This document shows, piece after piece, positions 4,350 to 54,661 of a stretch of 64,000 bases of DNA. This DNA is from Candidatus Latescibacterota bacterium. GTDB taxonomy: Bacteria > Latescibacterota > UBA2968 > GCA-2709665. Where the stretch lies: assembly GCA_965219455.1 (NCBI GenBank), contig OZ244744.1, forward strand, positions 5,536,001-5,600,000, given 5' to 3'. The position numbers and the translations under genes were made by a program. The notes under the pieces are model-generated. The model saw only the letters and a program-made list of their open reading frames with translations, searched no databases and was not told where the DNA came from. Within the stretch, counting starts at the first letter, position 1, and each line of letters starts with the position of its first letter.

Positions 4350-5381
4350 TCATTTCGTTTCCGATGATTCGGTCGCGTTGTCTGAGGCTGTTGTTGGTGC
4401 GGTGGGGGCGTCCCCCTTCTCTCCCGTTGGCGATTCTTCGCTTATGCTGCCCGTGTCCACAGGCTCTGATTGCGGGGCACGTAATCGAGTGAGCTTTTCC
4501 TTAAGCGCCGACCAGAGCCCGGACAGGCCAACCTGCTGTCGCGATGCCGGGGTCTCTTCGTCCTGATCGTCTCCCTCCACATCGGTATCTTCGGTAATCG
4601 CCTCCTCGCTGCAATCGGCCTCCGGGGCGTAGAGCAACACGGTGGTATTGTCCTGGTAGGGACGTTCCGCGGCTTCCACGGCATGGATCAGCGCGCCTGC
4701 GACGTCGTCGAGTGACGCGTCGCCTTGATCGTCAAGAATTCGCTCGATCTCCTCATCCCCGAGGGTCATCAGGCCGTCGCTTGCCAGCAGGAGTCGATCT
4801 GTTTTCCGGACCGCAACCGGCTGGGACGAGACGTCAACCAGGTGGATCTCCTCGCCCATCACCGCGGACCGCAGCGCATGCCGGTTGGAATCCGTGGCCG
4901 CCTGCTCAGCGGTCATGCGACCGGCCGCCACCAGGCTGGCCAGTACCGGCGCCATGGAATGATCGGCATTGAGGCGGCGCAACCGGCCGTCTCGGAACAG
5001 CCACAGCGGGGAATCCCCCACGCTGATCCAGTCGATTCCATCGCGCGAAATCACCGCCACGACCACCGTGGACCCCATCCCCTTCATTTCGGGGTTTTCG
5101 CTCGTCGCGTCGGCGAGGGCGTCGTTGGCGGCGGCAAGGCAGGCGCGCAGACGATCCGGGATCGGTCCATCCGTGGCGGGATAGGTTTCCACGAACGTCT
5201 TGACAACGGTCCTGCTGGCCGTGTCGCCGCTCACGTGCCCCCCCATCCCGTCGGCGAGCACCAGCACCTCGCCGCCGTCCGCGTCGGATTCATCCCGCTC
5301 GATCAGGCCGTAATCGTCCTCCTGGTATTCCCGGCCGCCGGGAATCTGCCGCGCGGCGAATCGTCCTTCCAATCGGTTCAT
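4350..5381 (-). CDS. PP2C-family Ser/Thr protein phosphatase (copy 1)
   Basis: GGREYQED, LADGMGGH, GMGSTVV, SVGDSP, LASDGL, QDNTT motifs. Confidence 0.93.
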   Translation of the reverse strand: MNRLEGRFAARQIPGGREYQEDDYGLIERDESDADGGEVLVLADGMGGHVSGDTASRTVVKTFVETYPATDGPIPDRLRACLAAANDALADATSENPEMKGMGSTVVVAVISRDGIDWISVGDSPLWLFRDGRLRRLNADHSMAPVLASLVAAGRMTAEQAATDSNRHALRSAVMGEEIHLVDVSSQPVAVRKTDRLLLASDGLMTLGDEEIERILDDQGDASLDDVAGALIHAVEAAERPYQDNTTVLLYAPEADCSEEAITEDTDVEGDDQDEETPASRQQVGLSGLWSALKEKLTRLRAPQSEPVDTGSISEESPTGEKGDAPTAPTTASDNATESSETK

Positions 5382-5960
5382 GGTATTCCTCCATGCAAGC
5401 GAAATACGACGGGCATCTCATCGAGCATATCCTGTCAATATGGTGCAATGCGGTATCCGTCTTCTTGATGCTCTAGGATCTGCTCCATTTTTCTATCCAC
5501 TACCCTTTAATGCAACTCCACTACAACTTCCAGGGCCTATCACGGACGATCGAAATTTGTGCGGAAGACCAATTTGGACGGTCAGCCGAATTCTCAGGTT
5601 TCGTTCTGTAGGGGAAAAGGTTTTAAGTTTTTAGTTAAGTATTAGGCATTGTTCGGTAAAATTCATGCGTTGAATGAGCCATTTGGATGGTATGGTCCAA
5701 ATGGTGGATGTGCCATTATTCTCGTCCTGCGGACGTTGTAACACAACCAAAGTCTTGAAGCACCTCGTAAGTGTCAGCGAGGGGGTAGAGGACGTCCGCA
5801 CTATCATTGTCGCGGCAGGCTCTGCACGCAGGCTCCATATCTGGTGATCCTAACGTGTGTGGGCGGAATTGAAGGTTTTGGGGAATTATCCTGTCTACGC
5901 TGTTTATCCATTTCTATCGATTTTTCGTTGAAGTCCAGGATTTTTGGGTTTTGCACTTTG

Positions 5961-5998
5961 CTTCAAGCTGAATGCTGTAAGCTGTACGCTGACAGCTT
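5961..5998. repeat. Degenerate short tandem repeat (gctgNNN units) directly downstream of kinase-FGE genes
   Basis: cttcaagctgaatgctgtaagctgtacgctgacagc; related copies at about 8941, 28912, 34729, 39965 and 42403. Confidence 0.6.
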
Positions 5999-6001
5999 TT
6001 T

Positions 6002-8626
6002 TTATGGCGTAAGCGTCCGGGCAATACGGAAACCGACGTTGTGGAGCCGCCCCCCGGTGTAGCTCCTGAAGCGATACGCGGCGCGGAGGATCCCGGGATC
6101 GACGTTGTACCACGAGCCGCCGCGCAATACCCGCTTCGCACAATCGCCCCCCTCCCAGGCTGACCCATCCGCAGGGGCGCCCGTATAGCTGTTGTTCCAG
6201 CAATCCTCAACCCACTCCCATACGTTCCCATGCACGTCATGCAGTCCCCACGCATTGGCCCAAAACGAACCCGCAGGCGCCGTCTTTTCATCGTCCCAGC
6301 GGCTACCGCAACCGTCGCAGTTGGCACGGTTGTGTCCAATCTCATCGCCCCAGTGATATCGCGTCGTTGTCCCGGCACGCGCCACGTACTCCCATTCCGC
6401 CTCACTCAACAAGCGATACGTCTTGTCCGTCCGTCGTGACAACCACCGCACATACGACTGCGCGTCATCCCAACTCACGTTGATCACGGGGCGGTTCCCG
6501 CGGCCCCATCCACTATCGTCCGGGACGTACCCGCCGCAACCTCCGGCATTCGCGCAAGCGTCCCATTCCGCAAACGTAACCTCGTACACACCCACCGCAA
6601 ACCGATAATCGATCCTTACGCGATGACGGGGTCGCTCGTCATCGAACCCCTCGCCACTATGGGACCCCATCATGAACGAGCCCGACGGCACCACCACCAT
6701 CTCCGGGCATTCTGCACAGACCATGAATTTTCCGCCTACTGTCCCGCTCAGCCGCTGGGCCTTACGCGCTGCCGACAGACGTCTTTCGAATCCGGACAAC
6801 ACTGAATCATCCACGTTAACCGCGCGTAGAGAATCCACGTAGCCATCTGCCTTGTCAAACGCCTCTTCTTCCAGGGTTTTCTCAAACATCCCTTTATACC
6901 GCTCAATCTTAGCCTGACGAAGGCGTTCCGCCTCCTCGGCGGCCAGACGCGCCCGTTCCACTTTCAGTCTTCGTGCCTCCACCTCACGCGCCGCCAACAA
7001 GCGATCTTCCAACCCCAACAACACGGGCGCAGATGCATTGACGGAACGCAGCGATTCCACGTACCTGACCGCTGTATCGAAATCCTTCCGGTCGAGCGAT
7101 TCCTCGAATTTTCGTTTGAAATCCACCACTTTGGCCAGGCGACGACGTTCCGCCTCCTCGGCGGCCAGCCGCGCATCTTGCTCCGCCTGCCGACGACGCT
7201 GTTCCGCCAGACGCGACGCCGATACGCGATCTTGCAACCCTGGCAATACGGGCGCATCTGCCCACACACCCCGTACCCGGGACACGTACTCATCCGCCTT
7301 GTCGAACTGCTTGGCGCGCAACGACGCATCAAACTTCGTCACGTAACGGCCGATTACGCTGTCCAGACCCGCGCTCGCTTCCTTATGGCCCGGCGCCAGG
7401 GCCAATACCGCCTGATACTTCTCCCACGCGTTGTTCCCCGCGGGACTCGTCAGCCGGTCCCGCGCCAGGTCTTCACCAGCGCCCGACAACAAAGCCGACA
7501 TCTGTTTAGCAGCTTCTCCTTCCAGCGCCAGGCGGAGCTGCTCCGGGCGATGGATGTTTTCATAGTAATAATAGCCCCCTCCCATCAGAAGCGCCAACAC
7601 GCACGCCACGGCGGCGAAAACCGGCCACTTGCGTTTCCCGGCCTGCCTCACGCGTGAACCATCAACCGTTGTGCGCTGCCGTGACCTCGGTGGGCGACCC
7701 TTTTCGGGCCTGACGACCGGCCGCGGTTTCTTCGCGCTGTCCGGCGTCTTTCCGGAAAGCGCAGTACGCCACGCGGCCACGCTCTGCGGGCGGTCCCCCT
7801 CATCCACCTTCAACGCCAGATCTATCGCCACAAGAAAACCGGCGCTCGCCTGACCCGCGCAACGCTCGGCCACCGGATCCAGCGGATCATTGCGCACCCG
7901 ATCCGTTGCATCGTCAGGGACGTGACCCGTCAATGCGTGGTAGCACACTGCGCCCAGCGCATAGATATCCGTCCAGGGTCCCTGGTCGCCGCGACTGGAA
8001 TACTGCTCGATGGGCGCGTAACCCGGCGTGATGATCGACGTGACAGACCGGCTGCGCGCCCCGATCGCCTGACGCGCCGCGCCGAAGTCCAGCAGCACCG
8101 GCGACCTGTCCTCGTCACGGATGATGATATTGCCAGGCTTGACGTCGCGGTGCAGAAAATTGGCCTCGTGGACCTCCTCCAGACCGTCCAGAATCGGAAA
8201 CAGAATGGCCTTAAGATCGGCTTCGCCCAACGTCTTACTGCGTTTGAGGAATTCCGACAGGGTCTCCCCCTCGGCGTATTCCATAACGATATACGCCGTG
8301 CCGTGCGCCTTAAAAAAACGAAACACTTTGATGATATGCCGGTGATCGAACCGGGCAAGGGTGCGCGCTTCGTCCAGGAATCGTTCCAGGCCCCACTCGA
8401 AGTCACCCAGAAACTGGCTCGCCTTCGGGACCACGCTGTTGTCGTCCGTGCGCGCGGCAATGTCGTCCGGCAGGAATTCCTTCACCGCGACCCCTTTGTC
8501 CAGGTTGTGGTCAAAACCCAGATACGTCATGCCGAAACCGCCGAAGCCCAGCACTCTCATCAGTTCGTATTCCTGCAGCCGATAACCCTGCGGCAGCGCG
8601 TTGAGCGGGTGTTGAGCGTCGTTCAA
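6002..8626 (-). CDS. Receptor Ser/Thr kinase - TM - stalk - FGE-sulfatase (CLec) protein, paralog 1
   Basis: GFGGFG, VAVKE, HRDVKPGN, DFG, TPGYAPIEQ; TM WPVFAAVACVLALLMGGGYYYY; FGE motifs MVVVPSGSFMMGS, RLLSEAEWEY, GNVWEW, RGGSW...GFRIAR; TTG start. Confidence 0.93.
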   Translation of the reverse strand: MNDAQHPLNALPQGYRLQEYELMRVLGFGGFGMTYLGFDHNLDKGVAVKEFLPDDIAARTDDNSVVPKASQFLGDFEWGLERFLDEARTLARFDHRHIIKVFRFFKAHGTAYIVMEYAEGETLSEFLKRSKTLGEADLKAILFPILDGLEEVHEANFLHRDVKPGNIIIRDEDRSPVLLDFGAARQAIGARSRSVTSIITPGYAPIEQYSSRGDQGPWTDIYALGAVCYHALTGHVPDDATDRVRNDPLDPVAERCAGQASAGFLVAIDLALKVDEGDRPQSVAAWRTALSGKTPDSAKKPRPVVRPEKGRPPRSRQRTTVDGSRVRQAGKRKWPVFAAVACVLALLMGGGYYYYENIHRPEQLRLALEGEAAKQMSALLSGAGEDLARDRLTSPAGNNAWEKYQAVLALAPGHKEASAGLDSVIGRYVTKFDASLRAKQFDKADEYVSRVRGVWADAPVLPGLQDRVSASRLAEQRRRQAEQDARLAAEEAERRRLAKVVDFKRKFEESLDRKDFDTAVRYVESLRSVNASAPVLLGLEDRLLAAREVEARRLKVERARLAAEEAERLRQAKIERYKGMFEKTLEEEAFDKADGYVDSLRAVNVDDSVLSGFERRLSAARKAQRLSGTVGGKFMVCAECPEMVVVPSGSFMMGSHSGEGFDDERPRHRVRIDYRFAVGVYEVTFAEWDACANAGGCGGYVPDDSGWGRGNRPVINVSWDDAQSYVRWLSRRTDKTYRLLSEAEWEYVARAGTTTRYHWGDEIGHNRANCDGCGSRWDDEKTAPAGSFWANAWGLHDVHGNVWEWVEDCWNNSYTGAPADGSAWEGGDCAKRVLRGGSWYNVDPGILRAAYRFRSYTGGRLHNVGFRIARTLTP
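6012..6135 (-). repeat. DGR variable-region-like segment VR1 (non-cognate to the local TR; one extra codon)
   Basis: Aligns to TR 22925-23045 with many changes at TR adenines, several non-A differences and a 3-nt insertion. Confidence 0.65.
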
Positions 8627-8982: not shown

Positions 8983-11607
8983 TTACGGTGTAAACGTCCG
9001 GGCAACACGAAATCCGATGATGCTGTCCCGAGTGCCGGCGGTATTCCTGTTGCGGTCCGCCGAACGCAGGAACCTCGGAGTGCTGAGCCACGAGCCGCCG
9101 CGCAACACGCGATTCGCGCAGGCGCCCCGCCCCCACGCCGATCCGTCCGCAGGCGCCCCCGCATAGCTGTCGTTCCAGCAATCTTGTGTCCACTCCCAAA
9201 CATTGCCCAACACGTCATGTAACCCAAATGCATTTGGCTCATAGTTGCCGGCTGGTGAAGTCCTGTAGTATCCATCGTCGCACGGCGCGACAGTCCAGCC
9301 ACTTTCGTGACGTCTTGCAGTCTCATCCGCTCCATTGCCATAATGACACTGTTCCCTTGACGATTCTCCCCAATAACGGGCTGCCGTCGTACCCGCACGC
9401 GACACGTACTCCCATTCCGACTCGCTCAGCAAACGATACCTTTCTCTCGTCCTTTCCGACAACCACCGCACATACCCCTGCGCGTCATTCCAACTCACGT
9501 TCATCACCGGACGGTTACCCCGGCCCCAGCCCCTATCATCCGGCCGATATCCCCCGCAACCCCCAGCGGACGCGCACGCGTCCCACTCCCCAAACGTCAC
9601 TTCATACACCCCAACCGCAAACCGATAACCGATCCGCACGCGATGCCGCGGACCCTCGTTATCATAACGCCCCGACTCCCCACCCGGAGACCCCATCATG
9701 AACGATCCCGACGGTACCACCACCATCTCCGGACAGTTCGCACAATCCCTGAATCTCCCGCCTACTGTGTGTTTACGCGCTTTTGATAATCTTACCTTCA
9801 ATTCTGACAACACTGACTCACCGACATTAAATACATTTAGAGAATCCACATACACTCCCGCCTTGTCCAAAGCCTCTTCTTCCATCGTTTCCTCAAACTT
9901 CCTCATATACAACTCGATCTTAGCCTGACGAAGGCGTTCCGCTTCCTGTTGACGCCGCGCCGCCTCTCGCGCTCCGGACAATCGACCTTCCAACTGCGAC
10001 AACACGGGAGCAGATGCATTGACGGAACGCAGCGATTCCACGTACCTGACCGCTGTATCGAAATCCTTCCGGTCGAGCGATTCCTCGAATTTTCGTTTGA
10101 AATCCACGACTTTGGCCAAGCGACGACGTTCCGCCTCCTCGGCGGCCAGCCGCTCCCTGCGCTCTTCCACCCGCCGACGCTGCTCCGCCCCGCGCGCCGT
10201 AGTAAGGCGCTCTTCCAGGCTCGACAACACCGGCGCATCGACCCACGCGCCACGTATCAGGGACACGTACTCATCCGCCTTATCGAACTCCTTGTCCACC
10301 AACGACGCATCAAACTTCGTCACGTAACGGCCGATTACGCTGTCCAGACCCGCGCTCGCTTCCTTATGGCCCGGCGCCAGGGCCAATACCGCCTGATACT
10401 TCTCCCACGCGTTGTTCCCCGCGGGACTCGTCAGCCGGTCCCGCGCCAGGTCTTCACCAGCGCCCGACAACAAAGCCGACATCTGTTTAGCAGCTTCTCC
10501 TTCCAGCGCCAGGCGGAGCTGCTCCGGGCGATGGATGTTTTCATAGTAATAATAGCCCCCTCCCATCAGAAGCGCCAACACGCACGCCACGGCGGCGAAA
10601 ACCGGCCACTTGCGTTTCCCGGCCTGCCTCACGGGTGGACCATCAACCGTTGTGCGCTGCCGTGACCTCGGTGGGCGACCCTTTTCGGGCCTGACGACGG
10701 GCCGCGGTTTCTTCGCGCTGTCCGGCGTCTTTCCGGAAAGCGCAGTACGCCACGCGGCCACGCTCTGCGGGCGGTCCCCCTCATCCACCTTCAACGCCAA
10801 ATCTATCGCCGCCAGAAATCCTCCGCTCGCCTGACCGGCGCAACGCTCGGCCACCGGAACCAGCGGATCGTTCCGCACCCGGTCCGTTGCATCGGCCGGG
10901 ACGTCGCCCGTCAACGCGTGGTAGCACACGGCGCCCAGCGCATATATATCCGTCCAAGGTCCCTGGTCGCCGCGACTGGAATACTGCTCGATGGGCGCGT
11001 AACCCGGCGTGATGATCGACGTGACAGACCGGCTGCGCGCACCGATCGCCTGACGCGCCGCGCCGAAGTCCAGCAGCACCGGCGACCTGTCCTCGTCGCG
11101 GATGATGATATTGCCAGGCTTGACGTCACGGTGCAGAAAATTGGCCTCGTGGACCTCCTCCAGACCGTCCAGAATCGGAAACAGAATGGCCTTAAGATCC
11201 GCTTCGCCCAACGTCTTTCTGCGTTTGAGGAATTCCGACAGGGTCTCCCCCTCGGCGTATTCCATCACGATATACGCCGTGCCGTGCGCCTTAAAAAAGC
11301 GAAACACTCTGATGATATGCCGGTGATCGAACCGGGCAAGGGTGCGCGCTTCGTCCAGGAATCGTTCCAGGCCCCACTCGAATTCACCCAGAAACTGGCT
11401 CGCCTTCGGGACCACGCTGTTGTCGTCCGTGCGCGCGGCAATGTCGTCCGGCAGGAATTCCTTGACCGCGACCCCTTTGTCCAGGTTGTGGTCAAAACCC
11501 AGATACGTCATGCCGAAACCGCCGAAGCCCAGCACTCTCATCAGTTCGTATTCCTGCAGCCGATAACCCTGCGGAAGCGCATTCAGCGGGTGTTGAGCAT
11601 GATTCAT
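8983..11607 (-). CDS. Receptor Ser/Thr kinase - TM - stalk - FGE-sulfatase protein, paralog 2 (remote DGR target)
   Basis: Same domain motifs as paralog 1; first ~430 aa nearly identical to paralog 1; C-terminus matches the TR. Confidence 0.93.
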   Translation of the reverse strand: MNHAQHPLNALPQGYRLQEYELMRVLGFGGFGMTYLGFDHNLDKGVAVKEFLPDDIAARTDDNSVVPKASQFLGEFEWGLERFLDEARTLARFDHRHIIRVFRFFKAHGTAYIVMEYAEGETLSEFLKRRKTLGEADLKAILFPILDGLEEVHEANFLHRDVKPGNIIIRDEDRSPVLLDFGAARQAIGARSRSVTSIITPGYAPIEQYSSRGDQGPWTDIYALGAVCYHALTGDVPADATDRVRNDPLVPVAERCAGQASGGFLAAIDLALKVDEGDRPQSVAAWRTALSGKTPDSAKKPRPVVRPEKGRPPRSRQRTTVDGPPVRQAGKRKWPVFAAVACVLALLMGGGYYYYENIHRPEQLRLALEGEAAKQMSALLSGAGEDLARDRLTSPAGNNAWEKYQAVLALAPGHKEASAGLDSVIGRYVTKFDASLVDKEFDKADEYVSLIRGAWVDAPVLSSLEERLTTARGAEQRRRVEERRERLAAEEAERRRLAKVVDFKRKFEESLDRKDFDTAVRYVESLRSVNASAPVLSQLEGRLSGAREAARRQQEAERLRQAKIELYMRKFEETMEEEALDKAGVYVDSLNVFNVGESVLSELKVRLSKARKHTVGGRFRDCANCPEMVVVPSGSFMMGSPGGESGRYDNEGPRHRVRIGYRFAVGVYEVTFGEWDACASAGGCGGYRPDDRGWGRGNRPVMNVSWNDAQGYVRWLSERTRERYRLLSESEWEYVSRAGTTAARYWGESSREQCHYGNGADETARRHESGWTVAPCDDGYYRTSPAGNYEPNAFGLHDVLGNVWEWTQDCWNDSYAGAPADGSAWGRGACANRVLRGGSWLSTPRFLRSADRNRNTAGTRDSIIGFRVARTFTP
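8993..9113 (-). repeat. DGR variable region VR2
   Basis: Versus TR (RVLRGGSW to ART): 16 mismatches at TR adenines and 3 at non-adenine positions. Confidence 0.85.
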
Positions 11608-11836: not shown

Positions 11837-13815
<1,979 letters not shown>

Positions 13816-15693: not shown

Positions 15694-15694
15694 A

Positions 15695-16081: not shown

Positions 16082-16092
16082 TACGAGATCCT

Positions 16093-45293: not shown

Positions 45294-46034
45294 TTATTCT
45301 CTCGATCTCTCTTCCACGTCCTGCCAGTCGAACGCGTCGCCGCAGAGGGGCACGAAACGGAGAACCGTCGAACCAATATGAATGTGGCTATGCGCGGGTA
45401 GTTCAGTTGGAACCAGTACGGGCTGATCCCCCAGGTAGGTCAGGTTCTTGCCCCCGCCGTGCTGCACGAAAAACTTCCTGCCGCGGGGATCGTAGGTCAC
45501 AACGGCGTGACCGCCGCGGGAAATCTGATTATCGCCGAAGTCCAGGCTGACGCGGGCGGTTCTCCCGCGCCCGATCGGATTGGAACCATTACCCAGCTGA
45601 AGGGCCTTTCCTTTTCCCGGCCCCTCGACGATCGCCAGCCACCCCACAACCGGGTCATTCATGCCGTCGGCTTCCACGGCGGGCTCCCGCCTGTCACCCG
45701 GCCTGGGGCCCGCGCCCACGTTGATAACGGTGCGTTCCTCCTCTTTTCCCGATCCGGGCGACGCGACGCGCTCCTTCTTACGTCGTCCAACGGGGAAGTC
45801 GGTTGCCGATTCCGTTTGTCCCATCGGTTTTGTGGGCTCATCCAGACGACCCGCACCGGCGACGTCACCTCCCCGCTCCGGTACAGGTTGCCGCCCCGGC
45901 TTTGTGGGTTCATCCGAACCTCCCCCGGTTTGACGGCCACCCTGAGGCGCCGGCGGCAACGGTTTCTCTTTGAAGTCTGTCGGCTTGCTTTTTTCTTCGA
46001 TGATATTGCCATCGGCATCACGGTAAACGGGCAT
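45294..46034 (-). CDS. FHA domain protein with disordered N-terminus (copy B)
   Basis: Paralog of 13834-14577; start ATG 46034. Confidence 0.85.
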   Translation of the reverse strand: MPVYRDADGNIIEEKSKPTDFKEKPLPPAPQGGRQTGGGSDEPTKPGRQPVPERGGDVAGAGRLDEPTKPMGQTESATDFPVGRRKKERVASPGSGKEEERTVINVGAGPRPGDRREPAVEADGMNDPVVGWLAIVEGPGKGKALQLGNGSNPIGRGRTARVSLDFGDNQISRGGHAVVTYDPRGRKFFVQHGGGKNLTYLGDQPVLVPTELPAHSHIHIGSTVLRFVPLCGDAFDWQDVEERSRE

Positions 46035-46526
46035 AACAAAGTCCTCCAAGAGCGGTGAGAGGTAAGAGGTGAGAAGTGAGATGGAGGTCCCGCATCTCTG
46101 GTCTCCCTTAGTCAGGGTCTCGTAATTCTCCTTCCGATACGCGGAGAGAGGCGGGAGTCTTGTGTTTTGTAGTAAGACCTTTAAGCAAAATACATTCGCC
46201 CAGACTCGTGCTGTTTCCTTCGGGTGAGGGGTTGGCATCCCCCCACCGCATCAGCCGTCGCCGGTCCCTTCGACACGCTCAGGGCAGCGCCTTCGACAAT
46301 CCTTCGACAGGCTCAGGACAGGGCTCAGGGAACCGGCTCGGCTTCTGCGACTCCCCCTCAAGGGGGGAGTGATGGCGAGTTCAGGACGCGATGCTCCGTG
46401 CGAAGAAAGAGCGATACAACGGAGTACGCGCGGGTCGTCTTGCCTCTCCCGTCCTGTGCCGTGGGTGAGAAGGTTTCGGCGAGGCGGCGGGGTGGTCCTC
46501 TCCCGTCTAACGTCTCCCCGATTCTG

Positions 46527-47300
46527 CTATTTTTCATACAGCCGGTTAATCAGATTATCCAGACAGTACTGCCCCGACCGGTTCAGTGCCATTTCCTCTT
46601 TCTGCTGCACGACATGCAGGGCAAACACGAGCAACGCCGATTGGACGAGGGCAAGAAGGGTCGTGTAGAACGCCACGCCCAGCCGCCCGGTGATCTCCGG
46701 CAGCAGATTCGGATCCTGTGGATTTTCATTGCTTCCGGCATAATCCAGCGCCAGGGCGATCCCCACAACCGTGCCGATAAAACCCAGCGTGGGGACCAGC
46801 CAGACGAGGTACCGCAGCATGTTGTATTTGAGTTCAAGCTCGTGTTGAAATAATTCAAGGGAAGAATTCATGAGGGAATTGGCCTGGTTGACGGACCCGC
46901 TGCCCTGAAACTGCAGGATGCAGCGCATGATCAGACGCTGCAGAAAGTACGTCGGCTCCCCTTCCGCCGGCCGCAACCGGTTATAGAGGGGGCCCAGGTC
47001 CTGTGATCGCAGCATGCTCGAATCGTCTTCCGGGAGATATCGCATCGTGAGTTGCGTCGTCTCCATGTTGGATTGGTTGAACCGCCGCCACAACTCCCCG
47101 CAACCGATGAAAAACATAATCCACATGGTATTCTGGATGGTAAACGGATAGGTATTCGCCTGGCGATCGAGCAGGAAATCGCCCGCCATAGAATCGCCGC
47201 TTGTGAAAAGGAAGCTCATTACCGCAATGAAAACAACGCCGATGACCACGCTCACGCCGAATGCGATCAGCCGTAGATTCGTCTCGGAATTCCGTTCCAT
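46527..47300 (-). CDS. MotA/TolQ/ExbB family protein (copy B)
   Basis: Paralog of 14920-15693; VPTLGFIGTVVGI. Confidence 0.88.
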   Translation of the reverse strand: MERNSETNLRLIAFGVSVVIGVVFIAVMSFLFTSGDSMAGDFLLDRQANTYPFTIQNTMWIMFFIGCGELWRRFNQSNMETTQLTMRYLPEDDSSMLRSQDLGPLYNRLRPAEGEPTYFLQRLIMRCILQFQGSGSVNQANSLMNSSLELFQHELELKYNMLRYLVWLVPTLGFIGTVVGIALALDYAGSNENPQDPNLLPEITGRLGVAFYTTLLALVQSALLVFALHVVQQKEEMALNRSGQYCLDNLINRLYEK

Positions 47301-47301
47301 A

Positions 47302-47688
47302 TCAGCCCTCGTCTGGAATGATTTCACCTGTGTCCGGATTGCGGCGAACGTTGCCCTCCGGAAGGGCGTCCGCCGGCTTTGGGCCTGCAGCCGGGCGCCC
47401 CGGGTCAGGATCGCCCCTCGATTCGAGTCCCTGCAGCAGTCCGAGCGCGCTTGTCTGGTGACGACCGAGGAGAATCGCATCCGCGGGGGAAACGAATTCC
47501 TGCCTGATGCGTATCCACTCGCCGTTCCGCGCCACGTAACTGCCGTTCCTGCTCGCACAATCGGTCAGATAGTACGACCCCTTCGCGGTCACGACCAACT
47601 CGGCGTGGACACGTGAGACCGTGGCGTCGTCTACTTGAATTTCCACGTCCGTACCGCGACCGATTCTATACGTCGAAAAGCCGGACAT
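47302..47688 (-). CDS. Small FHA domain protein (copy B)
   Basis: Paralog of 15695-16081. Confidence 0.9.
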   Translation of the reverse strand: MSGFSTYRIGRGTDVEIQVDDATVSRVHAELVVTAKGSYYLTDCASRNGSYVARNGEWIRIRQEFVSPADAILLGRHQTSALGLLQGLESRGDPDPGRPAAGPKPADALPEGNVRRNPDTGEIIPDEG

Positions 47689-47699
47689 TGCGGGATCCT

Positions 47700-48527
47700 C
47701 TACCGGTGTGTGACGCGCATATTGCCTTCGGCATCCACGGTGATCGTCGCAACCAGCACCTTGTCACCTACTCTTCTGAGCCGTATCTGCCGCAAAGGCG
47801 TCTGGCCGTCCGGCGTCAAAACACCACCCCGTACAAGCACACTTTCTTCGGTGGCGGAGTTGAAGTATTTGTAGTAGACCTGGTAGGTCCCTGCCTCTGC
47901 CAACGGATGCAGCCAGATTTCATTGCCTGGGCCCCTTGTATTGTCCTCTTCCAGGTTTGCCCGAGAACCGGAAAACGAACGGTTCCCGTAATAGAACTCC
48001 CGCCCAGCGGGATCGAGTACGTGCAGGTCGATATCGTCACCTGTATTCCAACTCATGATGATCAAGAGGAATTTCTTCCGCGCCTGCGCCTGACACGACG
48101 ACAGGTCCGCCTCGAGTTCCCGGTTACGGCTCTCGCAAGCCCCCAGGGCGTTACGCGGTACGGAGCCCTGCTGCTGCGCCTCACACGCCGCAAGCTGTCC
48201 TTCAAGCTGCCGGTTAAGTTCTTCGCAGGCGGCCAGGGCATCCGGGGATACCGACGCCTGCTGTTGTTCTTCACACGCTGCCAGGGCCGCCTGGACCTGC
48301 TGGTTGCGGCTTTCGCACGCGTTCAGTTCCCCTCTCGCTGCCTGTAACTCATTCTGGACGCTCTCAAGGCGCGCCATGACTTCCGCCACCCGCTCGGCTG
48401 CATCGCCGGTGTTCGGGAAGTACGGAAACAGGACGAAGGCAATGAGAATAAATGCTCCCATCGCCGAGGCGAACAGGTCAAGCGCCGACATACTGAAGAT
48501 ATTGAGTTCCCTGCTGCGGGATTTCAT
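47700..48527 (-). CDS. Single-TM MotB/ExbD-like, coiled coil, YfaP-like protein (copy B)
   Basis: Paralog of 16093-16857 with 21 extra coiled-coil residues. Confidence 0.7.
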   Translation of the reverse strand: MKSRSRELNIFSMSALDLFASAMGAFILIAFVLFPYFPNTGDAAERVAEVMARLESVQNELQAARGELNACESRNQQVQAALAACEEQQQASVSPDALAACEELNRQLEGQLAACEAQQQGSVPRNALGACESRNRELEADLSSCQAQARKKFLLIIMSWNTGDDIDLHVLDPAGREFYYGNRSFSGSRANLEEDNTRGPGNEIWLHPLAEAGTYQVYYKYFNSATEESVLVRGGVLTPDGQTPLRQIRLRRVGDKVLVATITVDAEGNMRVTHR

Positions 48528-48542
48528 GGCGCGGCACTCCTC

Positions 48543-50075
48543 TCAGGATTTGGAAACCATCAACTCCACGCCACCGGGCGCAACGGTGGCGCCATAATCC
48601 AGACGCTCCGGACGAAAGGGAGGCAGGCGACGGCGATTCAGAAACGTCCCGTTGCTCGAGTTCAGATCTTCGATACGAAATCCATTGTCAACAGCGCGGA
48701 TTCTCACGTGACGCCTGGATACATTGTCATCGTGGATGACTTCATCCACAAGATCCGGATGCCTGCCCAGCGAAAGTCCCAGCCGTTGTCCCTCTAATTT
48801 TTCGGGCGATAGCGCGATGCGAACGCGGTTGCCCCCGCCGTCGAACCCGGCCAGCACCAGACCGTGTCCCGTGCGCTGCCCTTCCGGTGTTCCTTCAACC
48901 GCCCCGTCGTGAGTTCTTCTCCTGATCGGCCGGCTCAACTGTTCCGCGACGTGGATGATCTGCTGCCGTGGTTTCTTCAGGCCAAGCAGCAGGGCCGCCA
49001 GGGTCAAGGCGCCAAGCAATGTCCCACCGATGAGAAACCGCCGGCTCGCCTCTTCCGCCTGGAGGCGCGTCGTTTCTATTTCCCGGCTTGCTTCTTCCGC
49101 CTGTCGCGCGGCCTCACCCGCCTGTTGTTTCGCTTCCTCCGCCTCCTGGCGCGTGCGTCCTGCTTCCCGGGTCGCTTCATCCGCGCGCCGCGTCGCTTCT
49201 TCGGCCTTACGCCGCGTCCTTGCTGTTTCCCGGGTTGCTTCTTCCGCCTTTCGCCGGGCCTCGCCCGCCTGTCGTTTCGCTTCTTCCGCCTCACGGCGGG
49301 CATTTTCCGCCTCCTCGGATCCTCCGGCTCCACCCGCCGGCAAACACGGACTGGTTTCCGGTGGTTGGAAAGAGATTCGGTGATCGCGCAGCAGCCTTGC
49401 CAATTCCTCAATGTGGGAAGACCAGTATATTCCCGCCGCGTGGGGCACACGGGTGACTCCCTCGGACCGGCTTTCGATCACAACCAGAGACGCCTGCGTA
49501 TTCACGCCGATGACCCTCCCGCAGTCATCCACGAGGGGACCGCCGCTGTTGCCGGGGTTCGTAGGCGCGTTGTGTTGAATGATCCTGAATCTCTGCGTGT
49601 GCCACGCCCCGGAGAATATCCTGCCGATAACGCCATCCTGCACAGTTGCATCATCGGCGAGACCCTCTCTGTCGGCGCCTCCCGGATAGCCGATTGCCCA
49701 TACTTTCTGTCCTGTCTTTAATTCCGCGAGCGAAAGCTGCATCGGTGGAAGATTGATCCCACGCGACTGAATGATTGCCAGATCGCGTTCAGAGGACACG
49801 GCAACCACCCTGGCGTCGTACAGGGTATTGGACTTTGCCGGTCGTACTCTGATCCGGCCGCCGCCGTCAATAACATGGACGTTTGTGGCGATGTAACCGC
49901 GTTCGTTGATCACAAATCCTGTACCGGTACTGGTCCCCCGACGCGTCTCGTTCAGAATCCGCACAACACTCTTCTTGAGTGCATCCAGGTCCGGACTGGC
50001 AACGGCATGATGCCCGTGAAAGAGCAACGCCAGAAGGAGATAGACAGGACTTATCGATCTGATCATGTTCTGCAT
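48543..50075 (-). CDS. Trypsin-like protease - coiled coil - TM - FHA, intact triad (copy B)
   Basis: TNVHV, DLAII, PGNSGGPL; C-terminal FHA. Confidence 0.9.
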   Translation of the reverse strand: MQNMIRSISPVYLLLALLFHGHHAVASPDLDALKKSVVRILNETRRGTSTGTGFVINERGYIATNVHVIDGGGRIRVRPAKSNTLYDARVVAVSSERDLAIIQSRGINLPPMQLSLAELKTGQKVWAIGYPGGADREGLADDATVQDGVIGRIFSGAWHTQRFRIIQHNAPTNPGNSGGPLVDDCGRVIGVNTQASLVVIESRSEGVTRVPHAAGIYWSSHIEELARLLRDHRISFQPPETSPCLPAGGAGGSEEAENARREAEEAKRQAGEARRKAEEATRETARTRRKAEEATRRADEATREAGRTRQEAEEAKQQAGEAARQAEEASREIETTRLQAEEASRRFLIGGTLLGALTLAALLLGLKKPRQQIIHVAEQLSRPIRRRTHDGAVEGTPEGQRTGHGLVLAGFDGGGNRVRIALSPEKLEGQRLGLSLGRHPDLVDEVIHDDNVSRRHVRIRAVDNGFRIEDLNSSNGTFLNRRRLPPFRPERLDYGATVAPGGVELMVSKS

Positions 50076-50078
50076 ATT

Positions 50079-51656
50079 TCACTCCGGCATCAGACGCACC
50101 CGAAAAACGACGGGGCCCATCCCGAGTTCATCATTGTTGTCCAGGACAACATGTTCACCGGGAGATATCAGACGCCCATTGATCGTCGTACCGTTCGTGG
50201 AGTTCAGATCCTCCGCGTAGAGGCGCCCGCCGGTATAGATGAGCCTGACGTGTTCGCGGGAGACGGCTTCGTGGTCGATTATGAATTCCGAGTTGGCGGG
50301 ACTTCTCCCCAGCGCGACTCCGGACGGCAGCGCCAGCGCCGGAATGCTCAACACAAACGGCCGCCCGGTGTCGTCCTGGCCCTCCAGTAAACACCTGAAC
50401 GGCGCGGGGTGAGGCGCGCGCGCCGCGGCCTGCCGCGCGGCTTCGGCCTCCCGTTCCGCCTCGCTGGCACGGGATGAACTGCTCTGCACCTGCGCCTTCT
50501 TCGAGCGGGCGAACAGGAACCAGCCCAGAAGCAACAGAATGACGAAGGCAGCCCCTGCAACTACGGTCCATCGAAACCGTTCGGACGCCTCTTCCTGGCC
50601 CTTCCTGTTGACCTCTGCCAGGCTATCCCGAGTTGCTTCGAGTCGATCTGCCGCCGCCCTTCTTATGGAATCCGCACGCGCGCGGGCCAGGGAATCCGCC
50701 CTTGCGTGCGCCCGTGTCAAACTGTCTTCCCGCGCATGTTTCAAGGAATCGCCCCGGGCCTGCGCGCGTTCGAGGCGTCCTCTTTCTGCCCTCAGGCGTT
50801 CCTCCGCCGCCGCCTTAATGGAGTCCTCCCGCGCCTGATTCAGGGAATCGGTCTTTGCCCGTTCCCGTCTCAGACTGTCTTCACGTGCCTGTGTCAGGGA
50901 ATCTGTTCGTGCCTGCGCCCGTCTCAAGCTGTCTTCCCTCGCTTCCGCCCGTTCAATGGCAGTCAGGCACGCGTCGTCAACCACGGTATGGGCGATTTCC
51001 CGTTCCCTGAGCGCGGCAATGACGTCGCCGCTGCGCAGGGCGAAGACGGTTCCCCTGGGATCCTTGACGTTCCGGAACGGCCAGCGCCCGCTATCCGGGT
51101 CCGGCAGGTTGATTCCGATTACCTTCCCACATTCATTAAACACGGGCATACCGAACGCCCTGGACTTCACGATGGCGTTGTGCTGCAGCAGATGTACGAG
51201 GGAATCGGCGGCGGTTCTGCCGAGTATGTCCTGGTGGGCGCCGATGGTACCGCGCGCAATCCGGACACTGTCACCAGCGGTGAATGTGAGGGTCTCCACC
51301 ACCCGTCCCACGTCCGACCCCTGCACAGACAGACTCAGGGGCGGGGATCCCAGGCCCTGCACGCGCAACAGAGCGAGGTTCATCTCGCGGCTGGCAAACA
51401 CCTCCTGCGCCACGATCTCCGCACCCGTCTTCAGGGACAATACCGTTACCCGGTCCGCATTCGCCAGGAGATGCGCGTTGGTCAGCACGTCCCCGTTTCC
51501 ATTCACGACAAAGCCGCTCCCTTCCGCCGCGACCTTGTTATATCTGTACGCACGCACCCGGACAACGCTCTCGGATACGACGTCGACGTCGGTCTGCCCG
51601 AACGCCGGGCCGGCCAGTGCGAACACAGCGATTTGCACAAGCAACGAGACACGCAT
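50079..51656 (-). CDS. Degenerate trypsin-like - TM - FHA protein (copy B)
   Basis: Paralog of 18493-20070; same NLALL and AFGMP substitutions; start ATG 51656. Confidence 0.85.
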   Translation of the reverse strand: MRVSLLVQIAVFALAGPAFGQTDVDVVSESVVRVRAYRYNKVAAEGSGFVVNGNGDVLTNAHLLANADRVTVLSLKTGAEIVAQEVFASREMNLALLRVQGLGSPPLSLSVQGSDVGRVVETLTFTAGDSVRIARGTIGAHQDILGRTAADSLVHLLQHNAIVKSRAFGMPVFNECGKVIGINLPDPDSGRWPFRNVKDPRGTVFALRSGDVIAALREREIAHTVVDDACLTAIERAEAREDSLRRAQARTDSLTQAREDSLRRERAKTDSLNQAREDSIKAAAEERLRAERGRLERAQARGDSLKHAREDSLTRAHARADSLARARADSIRRAAADRLEATRDSLAEVNRKGQEEASERFRWTVVAGAAFVILLLLGWFLFARSKKAQVQSSSSRASEAEREAEAARQAAARAPHPAPFRCLLEGQDDTGRPFVLSIPALALPSGVALGRSPANSEFIIDHEAVSREHVRLIYTGGRLYAEDLNSTNGTTINGRLISPGEHVVLDNNDELGMGPVVFRVRLMPE

Positions 51657-52161
51657 AAACAGACTCTCCTGAAGAAAGTGATAGGTATCACGTGTACGGA
51701 CGGGACGGACGATTTTGAGGTTTTGTCCTGTCCATATATCCCAATTTTGCGCATTCAAATCTTGCGGGCGAGGACGCCCGCGTTCCCAGGGGGTACCCTG
51801 AGGGCGAGTGCGTCCGCCCGAGTTTGTTGACGATAGCTTCAGCCCCAGTTGCAGCGGAAGCCGCGGAAGATTCTTCGACTCCGCTCAGAATGACAGGGCG
51901 ACGAATGACGTTGACGTCCCCCCACCGCATCAGCCTTTGCCTGCCCTTCGACAAGCTCAGGGGACCGGCTCGGCTTCTGCCTGCCTGTCCTGCGGACGCA
52001 GGCAGGCGACTCCCCCTCAAAGGGGGAGCGATGCGGTGTGAAGGCGCTTTCTCAATGGGTTCGCCAACAGCGCAATCGACGCGCGGGTTATTTGGTTATC
52101 GGGTTCCGTTGTTTACACCCGAGCGAGACACGCAGTCAGCCGGTCGATCCCGGAAAAATCG

Positions 52162-52184
52162 CCAGGGGGGCGCAGCCCCCCTGG
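52162..52184. promoter_or_regulatory. DGR target-recognition hairpin downstream of VR8
   Basis: ccaggggggc-gca-gcccccctgg. Confidence 0.85.
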
Positions 52185-52213
52185 ACCCCCGTAAGGCGTA
52201 AAGAGGTAAAGAC

Positions 52214-54661
52214 TTAAGGGTTAAGCGTCCGGGCAATACGGAAACCGTTGTCGTAGTACCGTTCGCCGGAGGAGTCCCTGTCGCGGTCCGCGGCGCGGAG
52301 GTACCTTGGGTTGCTGTCCCACGAGCCGCCGCGCAACACGCGACGCGCGCAATCACCGCGCTCCCACACCGATCCGTCAGAAGGGGCGCCCGTATAGCTG
52401 TTGTTCCTGCAATCTCCCACCCACTCCCATACGTTCCCGTGCACGTCGTACATTCCCCACGCGTTCGCCGAAAACGAACCCACAGGCGCCGTCTTCTCAT
52501 TGTCCCACCGACTACCGCACCCGTTGCAATTCGCTCTGTTGTGACCGATCTCATTCCCCCAGTTGTACCTCGTCGTCGTTCCCGCTCGCGCCACGTACTC
52601 CCACTCCGACTCGCTCAGCAGACGATACCTTCCTCCCGTCCTTTCCGACAACCACCGAACGTACAACTGCGCGTCATCCCAACTCACCCCCATCACCGGG
52701 CGGTTCCCACGGCCCCAGCCGCTGTCATTCGGACGATGTCCTCCACAACCCCCAGCAGATACGCACGCGTCCCACTGTGCAAACGTCACTTCATACACCC
52801 CAACCGCGAACCGATAGCCGATCCGCACGCGATGACGCGGACCCTCGTTCTCATAACGCCCCGTCTCCCCGCGCGGAGACCCCATCATGAACGATCCCGA
52901 CGGCACCACCACCATCTCCGGACATTCTGCACAGTCCCTGAATTTTCCGCCTACCGTCCTGCGCAGCCGCTGGGTTTCTCGCGCTGCCGACAGACGGCCT
53001 TCCTTCCCGGACAACACGCCCGCAGATGCATTGACAGAACGCAGCGATTCCACGTACCTGCCCGCGGCATCGAAATCATTCCGACCGAGCGATTCCTCGA
53101 ACTTCCGCTTATATTCCGCGATTTTAGCCTGACGAAGACGTTCTGCCTCCTGTGCGGCCAGCCGCGCCTTCTGCGCCCCCCGCGCCTCCGAAAGGCGACG
53201 CTCCAATCCCGGCAACACCGGCGCGTCGGCCCACACCCCGCGGATCCGCGAGACGTACCCTCCCGCCTTTTCGAAATTCCTGCCTCGCAACGCCGTCCCG
53301 AACTTCATCACGTAACGAGCTACAATGGTGTCCAGGCCCGCCGTCGCCTTTCGATGACCCGGCAACAGTTCCAACACCGCCTGATATTTCTCCCACGCAT
53401 TCGCGCCCGCGGGGCTTGTCAGTCGATCCCGCTCCAGGTCTTCGGCAGCGCCGCGCAACAATTCGGATATTTTTTCATCTCGCTGACGCTTCACCACATC
53501 CTCTGCCGCGGTTTGTCTCGCTATCACGGTTTCCTGCGCGCGGCGACGCTGGTCGGGGACATAGATATATTTATAGTAAGCGTAGCACCCTCCGATCAGA
53601 AGAGCCAACACGCACACGACCACGGCGGCGAACACCGGTCCTTTGCGCTTTTTGGGAGTCGCCGGACGGTCATCGGTGGCCCGATGGCCTGGCGCCGCGG
53701 CCGGCGCTCCCGCCCCTCTGACGCCCCCGCTCGACCGTTCCCCAGTACGTGCAGGCGCCGGCGAAGGCACGTCGTCCGACGTCGCTCCGGATAGCGCAGC
53801 ACGCCAGGCGGCCACGCTCTGCGGCCGGTCCGCCTTATCGACCTTGATCGCCCAATCGATCGCCGCAAGAAGGTCGGCGCCCGCCCGGCCCGCGCATCTC
53901 TCGGACACCGGAATCACCGCATCACCTATCACTCGTTCCGTGGCATCGGCCGGCGCCTCACCGGTCAACGCGCGATAGCACAGAGCGCCCAACGCGTACA
54001 GGTCCGTCCAGGGGCCCTGGTCGCCCTGGGTCGAATACTGCTCGATGGGCGCGTAGCCCGGCGTGATGATCGACGTGACCGATTTGCTCCGCGCGCCGAT
54101 CGCCTGCCGCGCCGCGCCGAAGTCCAGCAACACCGGCGAATTGTCCTCGTCACGGATGATGATATTGCCCGGTTTGATGTCGCGGTGCAGGAAGTCGGCC
54201 CCATGCACTACCTCGAGGCCGTCCAGGATCGGATTCAGGATGGCCTTGAGTTCTTCTTCTTTCAACGTCCATTTACGATCGAGATACGCCGAGAGGGTCT
54301 CCCCCTCGGCGTATTCCATCACGATATACGCCGTGCCGTGCGCCTCGAAGAAACGATGGACTTTGATGATGTGCCGATGGTCGAAGCGGGCCAGCGTGCG
54401 CGCCTCATCCAGGAATCTTTCCAGGCCCCACTCGAAGTCACCCCGGAACTGGCTCGCCTTCGGGGCCACGCTGTTATCGGCCGTGCGCGCAGCGATGTCG
54501 TCCGGGAGGTACTCCTTCACGGCCACGCCCTTGTCCAGGTTATGGTCAAAGCCCAAATACGTCATCCCGAAGCCGCCGAAACCCAGCACCCTCACCAGTT
54601 CGTACTCCTGGAGGCGGTGCCCCTGCGGCAGGGCGTTCAGAGGATGTTCCGCGTCGTTCAT
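52214..54661 (-). CDS. Receptor Ser/Thr kinase - TM - stalk - FGE-sulfatase protein, paralog 8
   Basis: Full kinase and FGE motifs. Confidence 0.93.
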   Translation of the reverse strand: MNDAEHPLNALPQGHRLQEYELVRVLGFGGFGMTYLGFDHNLDKGVAVKEYLPDDIAARTADNSVAPKASQFRGDFEWGLERFLDEARTLARFDHRHIIKVHRFFEAHGTAYIVMEYAEGETLSAYLDRKWTLKEEELKAILNPILDGLEVVHGADFLHRDIKPGNIIIRDEDNSPVLLDFGAARQAIGARSKSVTSIITPGYAPIEQYSTQGDQGPWTDLYALGALCYRALTGEAPADATERVIGDAVIPVSERCAGRAGADLLAAIDWAIKVDKADRPQSVAAWRAALSGATSDDVPSPAPARTGERSSGGVRGAGAPAAAPGHRATDDRPATPKKRKGPVFAAVVVCVLALLIGGCYAYYKYIYVPDQRRRAQETVIARQTAAEDVVKRQRDEKISELLRGAAEDLERDRLTSPAGANAWEKYQAVLELLPGHRKATAGLDTIVARYVMKFGTALRGRNFEKAGGYVSRIRGVWADAPVLPGLERRLSEARGAQKARLAAQEAERLRQAKIAEYKRKFEESLGRNDFDAAGRYVESLRSVNASAGVLSGKEGRLSAARETQRLRRTVGGKFRDCAECPEMVVVPSGSFMMGSPRGETGRYENEGPRHRVRIGYRFAVGVYEVTFAQWDACVSAGGCGGHRPNDSGWGRGNRPVMGVSWDDAQLYVRWLSERTGGRYRLLSESEWEYVARAGTTTRYNWGNEIGHNRANCNGCGSRWDNEKTAPVGSFSANAWGMYDVHGNVWEWVGDCRNNSYTGAPSDGSVWERGDCARRVLRGGSWDSNPRYLRAADRDRDSSGERYYDNGFRIARTLNP
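52224..52344 (-). repeat. DGR variable region VR8 (second template family)
   Basis: Colinear with the TR; shares fixed non-A differences with VR4. Confidence 0.8.

Follow-up and report, generated by a model that had tools for sequence, protein, structure and literature searches.

A candidate mobile envelope-signaling cassette with a diversity-generating retroelement attached to its sensor kinase genes in a Candidatus Latescibacterota genome

What kind of system brings together an array of receptor-like kinases, a diversity-generating retroelement (DGR), protein phosphatases and membrane-anchored proteases in one bacterial chromosome? We asked this question for a stretch of 64,000 nucleotides (nt) from a Candidatus Latescibacterota bacterium (contig OZ244744.1, positions 5,536,001 to 5,600,000; hereafter the window), for which an earlier note, made from the letters alone, had proposed that kinases with hypervariable domains signal to a protease and proton-motor module. 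The genes in question form an island of ~50 kb (window 4350-54661), with nearly all genes on the minus strand. Our anatomy of the island is based on Pfam, NCBIfam and PADLOC scans of the window proteins; all elements listed in that note were located, with kinases, DGR, PP2C genes and both module copies indeed co-oriented on the minus strand. The source genome is a single contig of 5.84 Mb. Its eight kinases of this type, its two modules and its sole DGR-type reverse transcriptase (RT) and avd gene all map to the window, so that their clustering goes beyond chance. On balance we favor, with some reserve, the view that the island represents a horizontally mobile envelope-signaling cassette which has undergone duplication and amplification here, and to whose sensor genes a DGR is attached. 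We would class it as a union of two known kinds of system, DGR-diversified receptor kinases and circuits of kinase, PP2C and FHA proteins, with a conserved protease-motor module that is itself undescribed.

The sensor genes encode eight proteins in which Pfam recognizes Pkinase at the N terminus (125-132 bits) and FGE-sulfatase at the C terminus (168-190 bits, E 1e-49 to 1e-55). These are the eight paralogs expected from the earlier note, built of a kinase, a transmembrane (TM) helix, a stalk and an FGE domain of the C-type lectin (CLec) kind, and their genes carry variable repeats (VRs) or eroded VRs:

6002-8626, minus strand: K1, 874 amino acids (aa), kinase-TM-stalk-FGE; VR-like stretch at 6012-6140
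8983-11607, minus strand: K2, 874 aa; VR at 8993-9113
24689-27334, minus strand: K3, the DGR-proximal target; in-frame TAG at 25385-25387; VR at 24690-24819
29132-31777, minus strand: K4, 881 aa; VR at 29142-29267
34770-37460, minus strand: K5, 896 aa; eroded VR with an insertion
39997-42231, minus strand: K6, 744 aa, short stalk; eroded VR
42446-45178 (open reading frame, ORF, extends to 45376), minus strand: K7; eroded VR
52214-54661, minus strand: K8, 815 aa; VR at 52220-52342

None of the eight proteins deviates in the catalytic Lys or in the HRD, DFG and APE-like motifs (8/8), with VAVKE, HRDVKPGN and DFG intact, and by these motifs the eight are predicted to be catalytically competent Ser/Thr kinases. 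Each has one hydrophobic helix (around residues 335-360) with basic residues before it, and no signal peptide is evident in any of the eight. According to the positive-inside rule, the basic flank of a TM helix stays cytoplasmic, and thus the kinase domain is predicted to be cytoplasmic and all C-terminal parts periplasmic. The TM helix and the FGE domain are connected by a stalk of 150-290 residues made of one to three repeated helical units. In a full-length structural model of K2 the stalk is formed by helices with predicted local distance difference test (pLDDT) values of 80-90; the rest is poor (mean pLDDT 48), and only the stalk was used. The notion that the hypervariable domain lies outside the membrane therefore holds for the cytoplasmic membrane, as concluded from domain order and topology, but "outside" is most likely the periplasm and not the cell surface. 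Periplasmic sensing is suggested by the stalk together with an envelope that is probably diderm, and no outer-membrane-crossing part was seen among the system components. No Cys is seen in the VR stretch RGGSW...GFR of the FGE domains; in catalytic FGE enzymes the active-site Cys pair sits near the C terminus. A correction to the earlier description of the kinases concerns K3, where the premature TAG separates a kinase part (25385-27334) from an FGE part (24689-25381) in what is otherwise one reading frame. Its position corresponds to the Ser of PSGSFMMGS in the paralogs, well upstream of the VR, so that DGR mutagenesis did not produce it. The TAG could mark a true pseudogene or a split gene, or be an error of assembly.

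Directly 3' of K3 we find avd and the RT gene, followed by the template repeat (TR):

24111-24509, minus strand: avd (NF033474, 100.8 bits, cut-off 80)
23045-24226, minus strand: DGR RT, ORF of 393 aa, start probably internal (RVT_1, 55.2 bits)
22925-23045, minus strand: TR, 121 nt, downstream of the RT gene

The RT translation contains YVDD and IGNLTSQ, the SQ motif being a hallmark of DGR RTs. The TR aligns with the 3'-terminal ~120 nt of the kinase genes and reads, in the VR frame, as an Asn-rich peptide with many AAC codons. Mismatches to the TR in K3 are found at 19/34 adenines and 4/96 other positions (p 3e-10), and the corresponding fractions are 16/33 and 5/88 in K2 (p 3e-7), 14/33 and 10/93 in K4 (p 2e-4), 13/33 and 10/90 in K8 (p 8e-4), 18/33 and 16/93 in K1 (p 7e-5, with a 3-nt indel), 18/32 and 23/76 in K5 (p 0.01), 20/33 and 24/90 in K6 (p 6e-4), and 19/34 and 25/93 in K7 (p 3e-3). 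From this pattern, K3 and K2 appear to be current or recent targets, K4, K8 and K1 older ones, and K5-K7 eroded. The final ~120 nt of K3 and K2, at least, show adenine-specific changes made by the DGR, and the other paralogs received such changes more anciently. The earlier claim of a complete avd-RT-TR cassette is thus borne out by profile matches, TR-VR alignments and A-biased mismatches alike. The 3' ends of the VRs are conserved with respect to the TR, and a 10-bp GC hairpin is located ~35 nt past the stop codon in K3, K4 and K8 only. This hairpin may have a function in homing, but as runs of T come after it, it may be no more than a terminator.

The second component is a six-gene module present in two copies, A (13834-20316) and B (45294-51758), whose genes we number 1 to 6 in the direction of transcription. 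PP2C genes complete the set:

18493-20070 (ORF extends to 20316), minus strand: A gene 1, pseudo-trypsin-coiled coil-TM-FHA (PF13365, 53.3 bits)
16873-18489, minus strand: A gene 2, active HtrA-like trypsin-coiled coil-TM-FHA, 538 aa (PF13365, 101.5 bits; PF00498)
16093-16857, minus strand: A gene 3, MotB/ExbD-like, N-terminal TM with Asp17; no Pfam family
15695-16081, minus strand: A gene 4, small FHA protein (FHA-4), 128 aa (PF00498, 54.8 bits), conserved C-terminal VRRNxxTGEII tail
14920-15693, minus strand: A gene 5, ExbB/TolQ/MotA-like, 257 aa, 3 TM (PF01618, 39.2 bits, cut-off 22.9)
13834-14577, minus strand: A gene 6, FHA protein (FHA-6), 247 aa (PF00498), disordered N-terminal half, conserved N-terminal MPVYRxPDGKI
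50079-51617 (ORF extends to 51758), minus strand: B gene 1, pseudo-trypsin-TM-FHA
48543-50075, minus strand: B gene 2, active trypsin-TM-FHA
47700-48527, minus strand: B gene 3, MotB/ExbD-like
47302-47688, minus strand: B gene 4, small FHA protein
46527-47300, minus strand: B gene 5, ExbB-like, 94% identical to the A copy
45294-46034 (ORF extends to 46238), minus strand: B gene 6, FHA protein
4350-5381, minus strand: PP2C a, 343 aa (PF13672, 47.1 bits, cut-off 24)
21705-22736, minus strand: PP2C b, 343 aa (Pfam), 92% identical to PP2C a
~32179-32540, minus strand: pseudogene fragment, a third PP2C copy

The two module copies, each with an inactive and an active trypsin-TM-FHA protein and two further FHA genes, agree with the earlier description by Pfam and by inspection of the catalytic triads, as do two PP2C genes; the third, fragmentary PP2C copy had been overlooked. 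PP2C a also gives a Stp1-type NCBIfam match of 141.6 bits, below the cut-off of 230. In gene 1 of both copies the Asp and the Ser motif of the triad are lost (Asp is replaced by Asn in A), and a charged coiled coil precedes the TM helix; gene 2 has the same tail and retains His, Asp and the GNSGGP motif. The Ser motif is kept in 0/32 pseudo-trypsin versus 27/28 active-trypsin homologs. The gene 2 trypsin has no PDZ domain, and all its NCBIfam equivalog scores are far below the cut-offs. The trypsin domains come after signal-peptide-like N termini and ahead of the TM helix and the FHA tail, an order which predicts that the proteases are periplasmic and their FHA tails cytoplasmic. The predicted cytoplasmic side thereby comprises four FHA domains per module, the kinase domains, PP2C and the loop of the ExbB-like protein, and the predicted periplasmic side the FGE domains, both trypsin folds and the C-terminal domain of gene 3.

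The MotA/B-type pair of the earlier note was recovered in part. The gene 5 product matches PF01618 above cut-off; its listed ORF (343 aa, to 15951 in A) is over-called, since homologs have stops in the extension, and the true start lies near 15693 (A) or 47300 (B), giving 257 aa and 3 TM helices. Its partner, the gene 3 protein (254-275 aa), has an N-terminal TM helix with Asp17 invariant in 15/15 sequences, a Cys-containing coiled coil and a C-terminal β-sandwich, but matched no hidden Markov model (HMM) for MotB, ExbD or TolR in Pfam, NCBIfam or PADLOC. Its TM segment resembles the MotB/ExbD plug-TM region, and the pairing is supported by this TM segment with Asp17 and by gene adjacency. The protein may work like a MotB/ExbD-type partner and is at most a putative member of that family. 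The label "YfaP" for its C-terminal domain could not be reproduced, as there is no Pfam match; a fold search with the gene 3 model returned weak TerD/PLAT-like β-sandwich matches (best E 9e-4, TM-scores 0.37/0.50), and an ESM Atlas search coiled-coil-like or unnamed clusters only. In other genomes this domain is a β-sandwich or a vWA domain (PF00092, 25.9 and 27.1 bits, cut-off 23.8).

The two small, soluble FHA proteins, whose genes lie on either side of the ExbB-like gene, share a conserved R-x-x-D/T-G-E/K-I-I peptide, located at the N terminus of FHA-6 and the C terminus of FHA-4, and one may speculate that these peptides dock on a common partner. FHA-6 has an FhaB/FipA-like NCBIfam match below cut-off, and an OdhI-like sub-threshold match was also seen in the module FHA scans. 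A Thr located ~35 residues before the FHA domain, in the sequence ERTV, is conserved in at least 90% of FHA-6 homologs. We rejected an EPTK motif as FHA-6 phospho-site, as it is not conserved (missing in 63/69 proteins).

Does the combination of kinases and module recur elsewhere? We recovered 70 loci from a one-genome-per-species scan with an ExbB-like alignment as bait (two peptide patterns of one family). By record label they belong to Latescibacterota/Latescibacteria (38), Gammaproteobacteria (12), Ca. Azotimanducaceae/Azophilus (7), Pseudomonadales (3), Binatia (3) and Gemmatimonadota/Gemmatimonadaceae (2), with one each from SAR86, Acidimicrobiaceae, Hyphomonadaceae, Mycobacteriaceae and Pseudomonadota; some of these single-taxon loci, on short contigs of metagenome-assembled genomes, may be mis-binned. 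Co-occurrence was counted in the 58 loci having full 10-kb flanks, onto which the window proteins were mapped. We found a kinase in 57 of them, FHA-6 in 56, PP2C in 55, gene 3 in 54, a trypsin gene in 49, FHA-4 in 46, an FGE domain in 29, and avd or RT in 5; PP2C and FHA accompany the kinase in 54/58. The possibility, raised in the earlier note, that the module never neighbors kinase-FGE genes in other genomes thus clearly fails. Gene order is largely fixed across module loci, and in seven fetched loci of relatives the module adjoins this kinase family in 7/7 and PP2C in 6/7. ORF clustering of the 70 loci revealed no further conserved sense-strand family, only antisense shadow ORFs, and no kinase of another kind near the four FHA domains of the module. 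The ExbB-like protein is ~55-85% identical across records labeled as different phyla, which suggests transfer of the cassette.

The sensor part of the kinases varies among these loci. Among 96 module-linked kinases of full length, FGE is the C-terminal domain in 30, and a hydrophobic segment lies within residues 280-480 in 74. Among 10 of the 66 non-FGE kinases sampled with Pfam, seven carry ankyrin repeats, two Sel1 repeats, and one has no further Pfam family; the last, with several hydrophobic segments, is read as a putative polytopic protein. As annotated, the kinase ectodomain is swappable (FGE, ankyrin, Sel1, polytopic), while the cytoplasmic core is constant. A receptor system would be expected to look like this, with binding modules that vary in the periplasm and a core that stays the same in the cytoplasm.

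We compared the insertion site with that of same-genus genomes. The gene 3 protein is not found in 14/14 of these and is present at 77-80% identity in two more distant relatives. The island is bordered by the following genes, around which we compared loci L112-L116:

3251-3937 and 55546-57429: island flanks, LexA-like and CBM9-domain genes

In two congeners (G013, G014) the LexA and CBM9 genes are adjacent, forming an empty site, and G014 keeps a 28-aa PP2C remnant. The insert consists of one kinase-stalk-FGE gene and PP2C, without the module, in G002 and G008, and of a stalk-FGE remnant and PP2C in G009. Because congener inserts are absent or smaller, the 50 kb of the island are a lineage-specific expansion of a variable site.

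DGRs with A-only VRs accompany the cassette in two other genomes. Locus L072, labeled Gammaproteobacteria, contains an intact avd-RT-TR in the same target-avd-RT-TR order as the window, and three kinase-FGE VRs whose mismatches fall at TR adenines in 16/17, 19/20 and 18/18 cases. In L117, from the same genome as L079, avd is 72% and RT 77% identical to those of the window, the DGR adjoins the module, and three VRs have 17/18, 10/11 and 20/21 mismatches at A. These VRs reside in three stand-alone FGE ORFs of ~300 aa (L117 7982-14776), not in the adjacent kinase-FGE gene of 1004 aa, and the stand-alone proteins may be soluble co-receptors.

Together these components suggest a possible signaling route. 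A periplasmic ligand bound to the variable lectin face would activate the kinase, and phospho-threonines on the kinase juxtamembrane segment and/or the FHA-6 linker would be read by FHA domains; candidate phospho-sites are the Thr/Ser-rich juxtamembrane segment and the conserved FHA-6 Thr described above. FHA reading would bring the protease/pseudo-protease pair and the ExbB-like/MotB-like pair to the receptor, or release them, and the output would be a periplasmic proteolytic or mechanical action, with the channel pair being proton-driven. PP2C would reset the system, and the DGR would re-draw the ligand specificity of several receptors feeding one output. A stronger version, in which a changing, DGR-made repertoire of receptors on the kinases feeds, by docking of phospho-threonine to FHA domains, a common effector (a protease with the pseudo-protease as its regulator, and a MotAB-like machine driven by protons), serves to recognize invaders or non-self, and moves between phyla as one cassette, we regard as unlikely.

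The role of such a circuit can be sought in several directions. A defensive role, anti-phage or conflict-related or in kin discrimination, with DGR-varied periplasmic receptors detecting proteins of invaders and the kinase signal unleashing the tethered protease and the MotAB-like channel as a suicidal or blocking effector in a Zorya- or abortive-infection-like manner, is a possibility that we entertain tentatively. The patchy, island-like distribution (module in 0/14 same-genus genomes, empty sites in G013 and G014), the ~55-85% identity across records labeled as different phyla with its suggestion of transfer, and a dynamic copy number with signs of decay (pseudogenes, DGR remnants, introns) would all fit, as would PADLOC matches to ZorA (weak, 22.3 bits) and of the kinase domain to the defense kinases mad6 and PD-T4-6. 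In addition, DGR-varied CLec "antigen sensors" with trypsin effectors have been proposed for other bacteria (PMC10907252 and PMC7159879). However, the PADLOC matches concern generic domains only, the cassette contains no known defense gene, nuclease, TIR, STAND or MoxR partner, and invaders are not typically sensed by ankyrin or Sel1 ectodomains. Another conceivable role is the sensing of host or environmental macromolecules, with eukaryote-type, polysaccharide or protein ligands reaching the periplasm, the module then remodeling the envelope and the DGR adapting the range of ligands as host or substrate changes. Apart from FGE, the ectodomains found are repeats for protein interaction (ankyrin in 7/10, Sel1 in 2/10 sampled non-FGE kinases), of types that are enriched in host-associated bacteria. 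The MotB-like protein has a vWA domain in many loci, and the cyanobacterial DGR kinase-CLec targets were interpreted as regulatory tuning (PMC7517822). This role appears rather doubtful to us, since ORF clustering finds no transcription factor or metabolic output in the cassette, and the need for a protease/pseudo-protease pair and a motor is left unexplained. Envelope homeostasis, with a PknB/PstP/FhaA-FhaB-like or PpkA/PppA/Fha1-like circuit for wall growth or secretion and an incidental DGR, would account for the triad that the cassette shares with those circuits (receptor kinase, PP2C, FHA adaptors), for the FhaB/FipA-like and OdhI-like sub-threshold matches, and for the HtrA-like proteases, which are classical envelope quality-control enzymes. 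A housekeeping system would, however, be neither missing in 14/14 congeners nor duplicated in an island; window scans and conserved neighbor families reveal no adjacent wall-synthesis or type VI secretion system (T6SS) genes, and DGR linkage recurs in at least three lineages. Thus we consider homeostasis distinctly improbable.

Whatever the role, several observations weigh against a tightly coupled, presently diversifying circuit. The recovered loci are close relatives and not independent samples, because they were picked through one bait family; the ExbB-like profile is found in 0/14 same-genus genomes; and the assignment of gene 3 to MotB/ExbD draws on the likeness of the TM sequence and on gene pairing, as no HMM matched. 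The kinases do not need the module, because G002 and G008 have kinase-FGE and PP2C without it, and this pair is the main evidence against obligatory coupling. It would fit kinases and module that are mere neighbors without functional coupling, an explanation to which we give very little credence: 57/58 module loci have a kinase and 55/58 PP2C, in fixed order and in records labeled as several phyla, and the four FHA domains of the module have no other kinase nearby. With respect to the DGR, only part of the array is currently addressable, since the VRs of K5-K7 have many non-A differences, and K3, the DGR-proximal target, carries a premature TAG. L027 retains a TR and a VR (17/21 mismatches at A) with only remnants of avd and RT, and the RT of L088 is truncated. 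In ten further genomes with FGE-type kinases and no DGR in the flanks, avd was detected in 0/5 and 2/5; both avd genes adjoin the locus and one is degenerate. The DGR is found in only 5/58 loci within 10 kb and absent from 8/10 of the further genomes, and this minority presence, together with decay, indicates a recurrent but dispensable add-on. A-only VRs do recur in two other genomes, but the DGR, an integral part of the circuit in the earlier proposal, is an accessory and belongs to no fixed core. The DGR of the window could even be a fossil, the VR patterns recording past diversification and the array changing today by duplication, recombination and point mutation. We take this as a serious possibility, although we lean the other way. 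The broken cis target K3, the 10-16 non-A mismatches in K1, K4 and K8 and 23-25 in K5-K7, and the common decay seen in L027 and L088 are in line with it, but neither RT (YVDD and SQ motifs) nor avd or TR is damaged, nearly all differences of K3 and K2 from the TR are at adenines, and VR 3' ends and GC hairpins are conserved.

How does the envelope-signaling cassette that we favor relate to described systems? TM Hanks kinases are encoded together with PP2C and FHA proteins in the PpkA-PppA-Fha1 pathway of the Pseudomonas H1-T6SS and the PknB-PstP-FhaA/FhaB pathway of Actinobacteria. The cassette resembles these pathways in its TM kinase with a periplasmic or extracellular sensor, its PP2C eraser and its FHA readers, and the periplasmic vWA domain of PpkA is of the same type as that of the MotB-like protein in other loci. 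In contrast, the window has no T6SS or wall genes and instead contains FHA-protease fusions, an ExbB/MotB-like pair, kinase arrays and a DGR. A PF01618 subunit above cut-off adjoining a single-TM partner with a conserved Asp recalls the 5:2 motors of Zorya, MotAB and ExbBD, but ZorC and ZorD, a long ZorA tail, an OmpA peptidoglycan-binding domain and TonB/TolA are missing, and the partner ends in a β-sandwich or vWA domain. Zorya membership is not supported in the PADLOC scan, where the ZorA match covers the channel domain only and no other Zor protein matched. MamE and MamO of magnetosomes are a protease-pseudoprotease pair, which the active HtrA-like protease beside its degenerate paralog resembles (with sub-threshold NCBIfam matches); unlike them, both module proteins lack PDZ and magnetochrome domains, and their coiled coil and TM helix lead to an FHA domain in the cytoplasm.

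The kinases themselves have counterparts in the cyanobacterial DGR kinase-CLec/FGE variable proteins (Vallota-Eastman 2020, PMC7517822) and in the kinase-CLec DGR targets forming class b12 (Wu 2018, PMC5758913), which share the N-terminal Ser/Thr kinase, the C-terminal FGE-type CLec domain with an A-specific VR, and multiple paralogs. Those targets are mostly called cytosolic there, whereas the window kinases each have one TM helix and a long stalk and belong to a fixed cassette; no FHA, PP2C, protease or MotA/ExbB partners are mentioned for them in the passages searched, and "FHA" occurs 0 times in those of PMC7517822. For multicellular bacteria, conflict systems have been proposed in which DGR "antigen sensors" are coupled to trypsin effectors (Dore 2024, PMC10907252; Kaur 2020, PMC7159879; Kaur 2021). 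According to Dore 2024 and Kaur 2020, these also combine a DGR-varied CLec sensor with a trypsin-like effector, can have up to many targets per genome and include one Pkinase target class. They signal through STAND NTPases or vWA-MoxR-VMAP with EAD adaptors, whereas coupling in our system would be by phospho-threonine. "FHA" and "MotA" each occur 0 times in the passages of PMC10907252 searched, and no MoxR ATPase, VMAP or STAND NTPase was found among the window ORFs scanned or the conserved neighbor families. A full-text literature search, covering main texts and few subscription journals, found no description of the combination, nor of an FHA domain fused across the membrane to a periplasmic protease.

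The island contains further features in and around the kinase array. Two group II introns, with Rfam D1-D4 and D5/6 matches, occupy intergenic parts of the array, the RT/maturase ORF having at least 7 near-identical copies in the genome; three orphan ORFs are listed after them:

11863-13815, plus strand: group II intron 1, RT/maturase ORF at 12288-13658
37551-38281, minus strand: group II intron 2, without RT/maturase ORF
33324-33998 (224 aa), 32691-32984 and 34035-34316, minus strand: orphan ORFs, no family match

The orphan ORFs lie with the PP2C fragment in a gap (31777-34770) of lower GC content (0.52), and no homolog of the three was found in the genome or the fetched loci. An 89-aa ORF is present three times on the plus strand between kinase genes (28506-28775, 39167-39436 and 39558-39827). 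It has weak helix-turn-helix-like matches only, homologs with 63% identity adjoin kinase-FGE genes in L012/L028 and L088, and it may encode a small regulator belonging to the system. Spurious plus-strand ORFs, similar to one another (27352-27654, 31795-32073 and 51808-52041), mark repeated blocks upstream of several kinase genes, which are probably duplicated 5' regions or promoters. Past the island, FG-GAP-like repeat proteins, an MlaD-domain protein and an ABC ATPase (60396-63935) are ordinary neighbors outside our finding, and tRNA-Pro genes are located at 57550 and 58861.

DGR-diversified cellular proteins are widespread and their signaling targets mostly obscure; here, the variable receptors are clear TM kinases, and they come with a fixed candidate downstream set, 8 gene families that recur in the 70 loci. 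The finding also defines a cassette whose sensor domain can be exchanged (lectin, ankyrin or Sel1) under a constant output. If the receptor-repertoire reading were true, its logic would be that of an antigen-receptor-to-kinase-to-protease pathway. Should the output be defensive, the cassette would constitute a new class of surveillance system, and should it serve host sensing, it would provide uncultured symbiont-like lineages with a new route to read their surroundings.

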